Shown piece by piece: positions 35,984 to 37,540 of a stretch of 64,000 nucleotides of DNA (positions are counted from its first letter, which is position 1; each line of letters begins with the position of its first letter). The DNA lies in NCBI RefSeq assembly GCF_054482595.1, contig NZ_CM137008.1; one strand, given 5' to 3'. The position numbers and the translations under genes are program-made. The notes below the pieces were generated by a model. It was not told where the DNA came from, did no database searches, and saw only the letters and a list, made by a program, of their open reading frames with translations.

Positions 35984-37540
35984 TTGATCCCGGACGTATC
36001 ACAGGCGCTGGCCTGGCTGGAAAAACATCCTCAGGCGTTAAAGGGGATACAGCGTGGGCTGGAGCGCGAAACTTTGCGTGTTAATGCTGATGGCACACTG
36101 GCAACAACAGGTCATCCTGAAGCATTAGGTTCCGCACTGACGCATAAATGGATTACTACCGATTTTGCGGAAGCATTGCTGGAATTCATTACACCAGTGG
36201 ATGGTGATATTGAACATATGCTGACCTTTATGCGCGATCTGCATCGTTATACGGCGCGCAATATGGGCGATGAGCGGATGTGGCCGTTAAGTATGCCATG
36301 CTACATCGCAGAAGGTCAGGACATCGAACTGGCACAGTACGGCACTTCTAACACCGGACGCTTTAAAACGCTGTATCGTGAAGGGCTGAAAAATCGCTAC
36401 GGCGCGCTGATGCAAACCATTTCCGGCGTGCATTACAATTTCTCTTTGCCAATGGCATTCTGGCAAGCGAAGTGCGGTGATATCTCGGGCGCTGATGCCA
36501 AAGAGAAAATTTCTGCGGGCTATTTCCGCGTTATCCGCAATTACTATCGTTTCGGTTGGGTCATTCCTTATCTGTTTGGTGCATCTCCGGCGATTTGTTC
36601 TTCTTTCCTGCAAGGAAAACCAACGTCGCTGCCGTTTGAGAAAACCGAGTGCGGTATGTATTACCTGCCGTATGCGACCTCTCTTCGTTTGAGCGACCTC
36701 GGCTATACCAATAAATCGCAAAGCAATCTTGGTATTACCTTCAACGATCTTTACGAGTACGTAGCGGGCCTTAAACAGGCAATCAAAACGCCATCGGAAG
36801 AGTACGCGAAGATTGGTATTGAGAAAGACGGTAAGAGGCTGCAAATCAATAGCAACGTGCTGCAGATTGAAAACGAACTGTACGCGCCGATTCGTCCAAA
36901 ACGTGTTACCCGCAGCGGCGAGTCGCCTTCTGATGCGCTGTTACGTGGCGGCATTGAATATATTGAAGTGCGTTCGCTGGACATCAACCCGTTCTCGCCG
37001 ATTGGTGTAGATGAACAGCAGGTGCGATTCCTCGACCTGTTTATGGTCTGGTGTGCGCTGGCTGATGCACCGGAAATGAGCAGTAGCGAACTTGCCTGTA
37101 CACGCGTTAACTGGAACCGGGTGATCCTCGAAGGTCGCAAACCGGGTCTGACGCTGGGTATCGGCTGCGAAACCGCACAGTTCCCGTTACCGCAGGTGGG
37201 TAAAGATCTGTTCCGCGATCTGAAACGCGTCGCGCAAACGCTGGATAGCATTAACGGCGGCGAAGCGTATCAGAAAGTGTGTGATGAACTGGTCGCCTGC
37301 TTCGATAATCCCGATCTGACTTTCTCTGCCCGTATCTTAAGGTCTATGATTGATACTGGTATTGGCGGAACAGGCAAAGCGTTTGCTGAAGCGTACCGTA
37401 ATCTGCTGCGTGAAGAGCCGCTGGAAATTCTGCGCGAAGAGGATTTTGTAGCCGAGCGCGAGGCATCTGAACGCCGTCAGCAGGAAATGGAAGCCGCAGA
37501 TACCGAACCGTTTGCGGTGTGGCTGGAAAAACACGCCTGA
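35984..37540 (+). CDS. gshA: GshA, glutamate-cysteine ligase (518 aa), TTG start
   Basis: Protein [33 protein letters not shown] recognised as GshA; codon at 35984 is TTG, the known unusual gshA initiator. Confidence 0.95.

Follow-up and report, generated by a model that had tools for sequence, protein, structure and literature searches.

AUG is generally favoured as a start codon, and weak start codons tend to be compensated by Shine-Dalgarno sites of greater strength (PMC5622118). The cost of departing from AUG varies: reporter data place GUG and UUG at 10–100% of AUG (10.1101/063800), UUG performs like AUG at 20–40°C in an optimised in vitro context, and highly expressed genes with a GUG start exist, for example, tufA and hupB (PMC5499595). 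Nutrient limitation and ppGpp also affect non-AUG starts more strongly (PMC5499595). A weak codon alone is no proof of low output; it is the context that decides the effect, which has been measured for gshA.

In cyaA, the UUG start codon limits synthesis (UUG:GUG:AUG = 1:2:6) and is conserved in Enterobacterales (PMC5499595). The conserved AUU start codon of infC acts as a regulatory sensor via IF3 and not as a mere brake (PMC5499595). The inefficient-codon class of the polyamine modulon, described by the Igarashi/Kashiwagi laboratory, contains gshA, cra, cya, frr, spoT, and uvrY, all with a normally placed Shine-Dalgarno site (PMC7177335). For gshA, the UUG was termed an inefficient initiation codon, and the GshA protein showed a 3.0-fold stimulation by polyamines at 24 h, exerted at the translational level (Sakamoto et al., 2015; PMC4405209). 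In a gshA-lacZ fusion comprising the first 38 residues, carried on a plasmid in a polyamine auxotroph and not at the chromosomal locus, polyamines stimulated synthesis 2.4-fold, and exchange of UUG for AUG raised baseline synthesis 3.0-fold while reducing polyamine stimulation to 1.1-fold (PMC4405209).

The gshA locus analyzed here is this published modulon member and differs from it in no respect: TTG 35984–35986 is the sole possible upstream start, and the Shine-Dalgarno site GGGAGGT, 4 nt before it, occupies what is considered a normal position (PMC7177335). Four further genes of the same region, hycB, yqaA, hycI, and nrdE, share the non-AUG start, and none of them is assigned to the modulon. 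The conservation of the gshA TTG is of the same kind as that of the cyaA UUG, with a smaller swap effect (approximately 3-fold vs. 6-fold) and with conservation that reaches the synonymous sites of the first ~17 codons. The likeness to infC lies in the conserved non-AUG start. The infC gene is autoregulated by IF3, for which the UUG of gshA is a canonical start codon. We know of no autoregulatory loop for GshA, nor of any suggestion of one.

Since the start codons of gshA, yqaA, and hycB are already annotated and the effect of the gshA codon was published in 2015, their identification is correct and ordinary. The published role of the gshA UUG is narrower than down-tuning, as it renders GshA synthesis polyamine-stimulated. 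The gene can be considered a clear-cut case in which a weak start codon serves as a regulatory device, because a single base makes glutathione synthesis polyamine-responsive. The new element is evolutionary: the TTG and approximately 70 nt of the initiation region are conserved well beyond coding needs, which suggests that this region holds more information than the codon alone.

Genomic Context and Start Codon Usage

The window, i.e., the whole analyzed stretch of 64,000 nt (NCBI RefSeq assembly GCF_054482595.1, contig NZ_CM137008.1), is a segment of the E. coli chromosome. Its gene order is hypC-hypA, hycA-I, asc, hydN-hypF, nor, srl, mltB, recA-recX-alaS-csrA, a tRNA-Ser/Arg cluster, yqaB-yqaA-gshA-luxS, emrRAB, proVWX, nrdHIEF, and on to gab. 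A 701-base stretch around the gshA start is present in 5424 of 5426 RefSeq E. coli genomes, many of which match it with 100% identity. Annotation was taken from one close match, strain N3 (RefSeq/PGAP; 100% identity over the 701 bases), and from the curated K-12 MG1655 record. The features discussed are collected in Table 1.

Among the 62 annotated genes mapped onto the window, 57 start with ATG, three with GTG (hycB, hycI, and yqaA), and two with TTG (gshA and nrdE). E. coli start codon usage is quoted as 83/14/3% (10.1101/063800), from which approximately 10.5 non-ATG starts are expected vs. the five found [P(X ≥ 5) = 0.99]. Weak starts are not enriched in the window. Two of the five, hycI and nrdE, were missing from the sequence-only reading. 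This below-average count speaks for reading the non-ATG codons as near-neutral accidents devoid of regulatory meaning, any output cost of which is offset by a stronger Shine-Dalgarno site, a reading that is nevertheless quite improbable in view of gshA and yqaA.

Table 1. Start codons, Shine-Dalgarno sites, and related features, with positions counted from the first base of the window.
Feature	Position	Strand	Remarks
hycB Shine-Dalgarno site GAGGA, 7 nt before GTG	2385–2389	+	−6.1 kcal/mol, mid-rank
hycB start codon GTG	2397–2399	+	N3 and K-12 (b2724) agree
hycI start codon GTG	9203–9205	+	RefSeq and K-12; overlaps hycH end by 8 nt
yqaA start codon GTG	35483–35485	+	overlaps yqaB stop TGA (35484–35486) as GTGA
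yqaA coding sequence, 142 aa	35483–35911	+	DedA/YqaA family
Hyper-conserved gshA translation initiation block, ~−20 to +52	35964–36035	+	most columns at least 94% identical, 51 sequences
Predicted small hairpin CGGGA..UCA-AUU-UGA..UCCCG	35972–35992	+	predicted pairing of Shine-Dalgarno site with codons 2–3, start codon at tip
gshA Shine-Dalgarno site GGGAGGT, 4 nt before TTG	35973–35979	+	−11.0 kcal/mol, predicted duplex with 16S 3' end
gshA start codon TTG	35984–35986	+	first in-frame ATG/GTG/TTG after TAA 35954–35956
gshA coding sequence, glutamate-cysteine ligase, 518 aa	35984–37540	+	
nrdE start codon TTG	51081–51083	−	RefSeq mapping

Several further features of the region were recorded. 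The Shine-Dalgarno site of hycI, GGTGAGGAG, is strong. Two other published members of the polyamine modulon are located in the window, emrR (start 41653, minus strand) and stpA (start 53935, plus strand). For emrR, the Shine-Dalgarno site is described as lying ~10 nt from the AUG, and for stpA as weak and distant (PMC4405209, PMC7177335); the scan of the window gave spacings of 8 and 10, respectively, with a weak site for stpA (−3.4 kcal/mol). Rfam matches comprise MicA between gshA and luxS (37550–37621, minus strand), a naRNA4/REP-type element (44219–44296, minus strand), and tRNA-Ser together with four tRNA-Arg genes (33777–34636, plus strand), where the spacers between the tRNA-Arg genes differ from those of strain N3. 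The luxS-emrB interval of strain N3 (6256–8072) carries two extra genes, coding for an ATP-binding protein and an RNA ligase family protein. Both were sought in the window and neither was located; the insert looks like a small variable island.

Start Sites of gshA, yqaA, and hycB

The sequence-only reading had assigned the start of gshA to a TTG codon and those of hycB and yqaA to GTG codons, and all three assignments hold. The window sequence across the gshA start, ggcGGGAGGTcaatTTGatcccggacgta, contains the TTG at 35984–35986. In this frame, a TAA codon is located 30 nt upstream, the interval contains none of the codons ATG, GTG, and TTG, and the next downstream candidate is a TTG at codon 31. 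The same start codon is annotated in strain N3 and in K-12 MG1655 (b2688). A TTG start was reportedly already given with the gshA gene sequence by Watanabe et al. in 1986, in Nucleic Acids Res 14:4393. The GshA chains of PDB entries 1V4G, 1VA6, 2D32, and 2D33 comprise residues 1–518 and begin with MIPDV. Over these residues, the protein encoded in the window differs from 1V4G_A at four positions, at each of which the crystallised chain has Ser in place of Cys. The precomputed family PF04262 is assigned to all GshA homologs among the matches listed; the window protein belongs to this family and matches the solved E. coli enzyme over its full length.

For yqaA and hycB, the starts at GTG 35483 and GTG 2397 are likewise shared by N3 and K-12 (yqaA, b2689), with no upstream in-frame start before a stop codon. 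YqaA begins with MSEALSLF, and the opening of hycB reads MNRFVIADSTLCIGC. The N-terminus MNRF(V/I)IAD...CIGC is common to HycB homologs from Klebsiella to Shewanella and supports the start position.

Gene callers sometimes extend these genes upstream, and database variants of 527–562 aa for GshA and 208–298 aa for HycB are in line with mis-annotation of one or more of the three starts, with translation beginning elsewhere. Such an error is extremely improbable, as no in-frame ATG, GTG, or TTG precedes any of the three before a stop codon and the downstream candidates would remove conserved N-terminal residues. Correctly spaced Shine-Dalgarno sites at gshA and hycB, the MIPDV start of the crystallised chains, and the response to a TTG mutation of a fusion that carried the first 38 GshA residues (PMC4405209) also argue against it. 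The longer GshA variants may be traced to a 1-nt indel in some genera: in Buttiauxella, some Cedecea, and related loci, an insertion of 1 nt brings an upstream ATG into the gshA frame at −39, which may account for the predictions of 527 and 531 aa. A conserved TTATGCT/TACAAT motif upstream of gshA could, as a guess, be a promoter −10 element, and if so, these two predictions are likely over-extended. A promoter scan of the region upstream of gshA returned no promoter above the scan threshold. The accessible parts of the supplements of a tetracycline-profiling study (PMC4909307) and of the TRAINSPOTTER N-terminomics study (PMC13245402) contain no entries for gshA, yqaA, or hycB.

An upstream ORF was considered separately. 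The ATG at 35946, inside the conserved TTATGCT, opens a 13-codon ORF in the +1 frame whose closing TGA overlaps the gshA TTG (35946–35987). This candidate was dropped on two grounds: its frame differs between genera owing to a 1-nt indel, and its position falls inside the likely −10 region.

Conservation of the gshA Start Codon and Shine-Dalgarno Site

A genome scan provided 53 Enterobacteriaceae gshA loci, 51 of them usable. The codon aligned to GshA residue 1 is TTG in 49 of the 51 loci, GTG in two, and never ATG. The two GTG loci are the most divergent ones and belong to “Enterobacteriaceae bacterium B14” (72% protein identity) and Tatumella (64%). TTG is also found in Salmonella, Cronobacter, and a 45%-identical metagenome homolog. 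While the matches listed by the word-indexed GshA homolog search are at least 82% identical, distant homologs were covered by a representative search and a few contig look-ups. The 44%-identical homolog in BA000021.3, which we take to be Wigglesworthia, has a TTG start, a homologous N-terminus (MIPKVSK), and the Shine-Dalgarno site AAGGAG. ATG is the start codon of a 51%-identical homolog whose N-terminus is unrelated. As a neutral yardstick, 92 strictly conserved 4-fold sites past codon 20 were taken from the same gshA alignment, which comprised the window and 50 loci. The major base has a median frequency of 0.56 at these sites, and a single one of the 92 reaches 0.96, the value of the first base of the start codon.

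The Shine-Dalgarno site of gshA is the second strongest among the 62 genes (median of ATG genes, −6.3 kcal/mol), and its GGAGGT core shows no variation in two alignments, which cover 24 and 17 species. Given the pairing of the TTG with a very strong Shine-Dalgarno site, the gshA initiation site is not simply weak. The rank of this site matches the general offset of weak starts by Shine-Dalgarno strength (PMC5622118), and this pattern of compensation would also be in agreement with near-neutral drift of the codon, as would the ability of UUG to equal AUG in vitro (PMC5499595). Against such drift stands the persistence of the TTG in lineages with largely randomised synonymous sites, among them the AT-rich endosymbiont with the 44%-identical homolog. 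As AUG is generally the selected optimum (PMC5622118), the long retention of UUG at gshA argues for selection. The swap to AUG, moreover, changes gshA output 3-fold and abolishes polyamine control (PMC4405209). We infer that the weak codon of gshA is under selection; since the block around the TTG is conserved in its entirety, selection on the T is inseparable from selection on the block.

In the preferred reading, i.e., an inefficient yet selectively maintained start codon, the TTG keeps basal GshA synthesis approximately threefold below the level of an ATG and makes initiation dependent on conditions that aid fMet-tRNA binding to UUG. Polyamines are the published example of such conditions and act above all in the stationary phase and during oxidative stress. 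The near-perfect, correctly spaced Shine-Dalgarno site would recruit ribosomes efficiently, so that the codon step would become limiting and tunable.

The sequence-only reading had interpreted the weak initiators of all three genes as translational down-tuning and had proposed start codon swap reporters as a check. For gshA, this experiment was already in the literature, with an AUG baseline 3.0-fold higher, and bears out the interpretation in a conditional form (PMC4405209). For yqaA, the interpretation falls short, as coupling to yqaB is the better fit.

Sequence Constraint Around the gshA Start

The gshA alignment is scrambled upstream of approximately −45, whereas nearly all columns show at least 94% identity in the stretch that runs from GACAGGCGGGAGGTCAAT to about codon 17 and includes the TTG. 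Where sequences agree in the amino acid, use of the same synonymous codon amounts to 0.94 for gshA codons 2–12 vs. a median of 0.66 elsewhere in the gene, the highest value of 423 sliding windows. The 4-fold sites of codons 3, 5, 6, 8, and 16 show values of 0.96, 1.0, 0.88, 0.82, and 0.96, respectively, and the non-preferred codons GTA and TCA are fixed in the 5' end. The 5' ends of luxS, yqaB, and yqaA from the same genomes yield 0.72, 0.69, and 0.54, with no comparable elevation. Among E. coli genomes, an identical 51-nt sequence surrounds the start in 5408 of 5424 cases for gshA, 5367 of 5417 for hycB, and only 1077 of 5291 for yqaA.

This pattern raises the question of whether the TTG is conserved mainly as part of a larger cis-acting RNA element (~−20 to +50), such as a hairpin sequestering the Shine-Dalgarno site or a site bound by a small RNA or protein, and not for the codon itself. 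The synonymous constraint at the gshA 5' end, its absence from the neighboring genes, and the fixed GTA and TCA codons all point in this direction. So do the repeats within the block (ACAGGCG/TCAGGCG) and the hairpin predicted at 35972–35992, which has −7.6 kcal/mol when folded alone and is present in the consensus fold. Compared with shuffled sequences, however, the initiation region folds no better (z = −0.2), and the covariation term of the hairpin is 0.11, its near-invariant columns offering too little variation to show covariation. The Rfam search of the gshA 5' end gave no match even at E ≤ 10, so that neither a curated family nor stability combined with covariation marks it as a structured cis-regulatory RNA. 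The literature search on CsrA or small RNA control of gshA found nothing relevant, and the published swap indicates that the codon itself matters (PMC4405209). An RNA element as the main cause is thus considered rather unlikely.

Pairing of MicA with the gshA start region was also evaluated; it was no better than with shuffled sequence and was rejected, which likewise counts against a small RNA site.

A related, tentative proposal, to which we give only a low probability, is that the ~70-nt block (~35964–36035), comprising the Shine-Dalgarno site, the UUG, and codons 2–17, could be a conserved translational operator in which the UUG would form part of a composite sensor. If this were true, glutathione synthesis would be linked to the growth state by the hairpin or an RNA-binding factor acting together with polyamines, IF3, or ppGpp. 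The constraint on the block may reflect such an operator, or nothing more than a context finely adjusted to initiation at UUG.

The direct repeats in the block are ACAGGCG (35967–35973), ACAGGCG (36001–36007), and TCAGGCG (36031–36037), with spacings of 34 and 30 nt; they could be due to chance.

The GTG Starts of yqaA and hycB

The yqaA start is GTG in 46 of 46 species loci, with a 4-nt GTGA overlap with yqaB in 45 of them, and is also GTG in Salmonella and Cronobacter. The first base of this GTG is the third base of the last Leu codon of yqaB (CTG or TTG). Exchange of this base for A would leave the Leu of yqaB unchanged (CTA for CTG, TTA for TTG), but none of the 46 loci has an A here. This invariance, despite a synonymous ATGA being available, is a further point against near-neutral drift of the non-ATG starts. 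The Shine-Dalgarno site of yqaA is weak (−3.4 kcal/mol, rank 55 of 62). In operons, 4-nt stop/start overlaps of the ATGA or GTGA type are associated with translational coupling by termination-reinitiation. The yqaB-yqaA pair resembles such coupled pairs in its GTGA overlap and in its weak downstream Shine-Dalgarno site, and this comparison of architecture with known coupled overlaps points to coupling. The GTG would then serve as the restart codon of the overlap, and YqaA would probably be made by ribosomes finishing yqaB. Given the conserved overlap and the near absence of a Shine-Dalgarno site of its own, the output of yqaA is probably set by coupling to yqaB, and codon identity alone probably says little about it. 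Within yqaA, synonymous-site conservation peaks at codons ~44–58 (35612–35656), with 0.91 vs. a gene median of 0.64.

In E. coli, Klebsiella, Kosakonia, and a Pantoea-like contig, hycB starts with GTG and has the Shine-Dalgarno site GAGGA; in Edwardsiella and Serratia, the start is ATG. This switching between genera is compatible with near-neutrality and is the point at which the near-neutral reading of the non-ATG starts finds its agreement with hycB. Beyond the codon, nothing indicates down-tuning or a special role; the GTG is an ordinary start internal to an operon, with a moderate Shine-Dalgarno site and at most a presumed effect on output.

Taken together, it is very probable that the three annotated starts are real, that the gshA TTG is functional, selectively maintained, and inefficient, that the yqaA GTG is a restart codon, and that the hycB GTG is ordinary.

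In the intergenic region between hycA and hycB (2326–2378), two copies of a GTCGAAAATGACA / GTCAAAAATGACA-like motif are present, the proximal one of which is also found upstream of hycB in Klebsiella, the Pantoea-like contig, and Serratia. The motif resembles what we presume to be the FhlA upstream activating site, for which it is a candidate.
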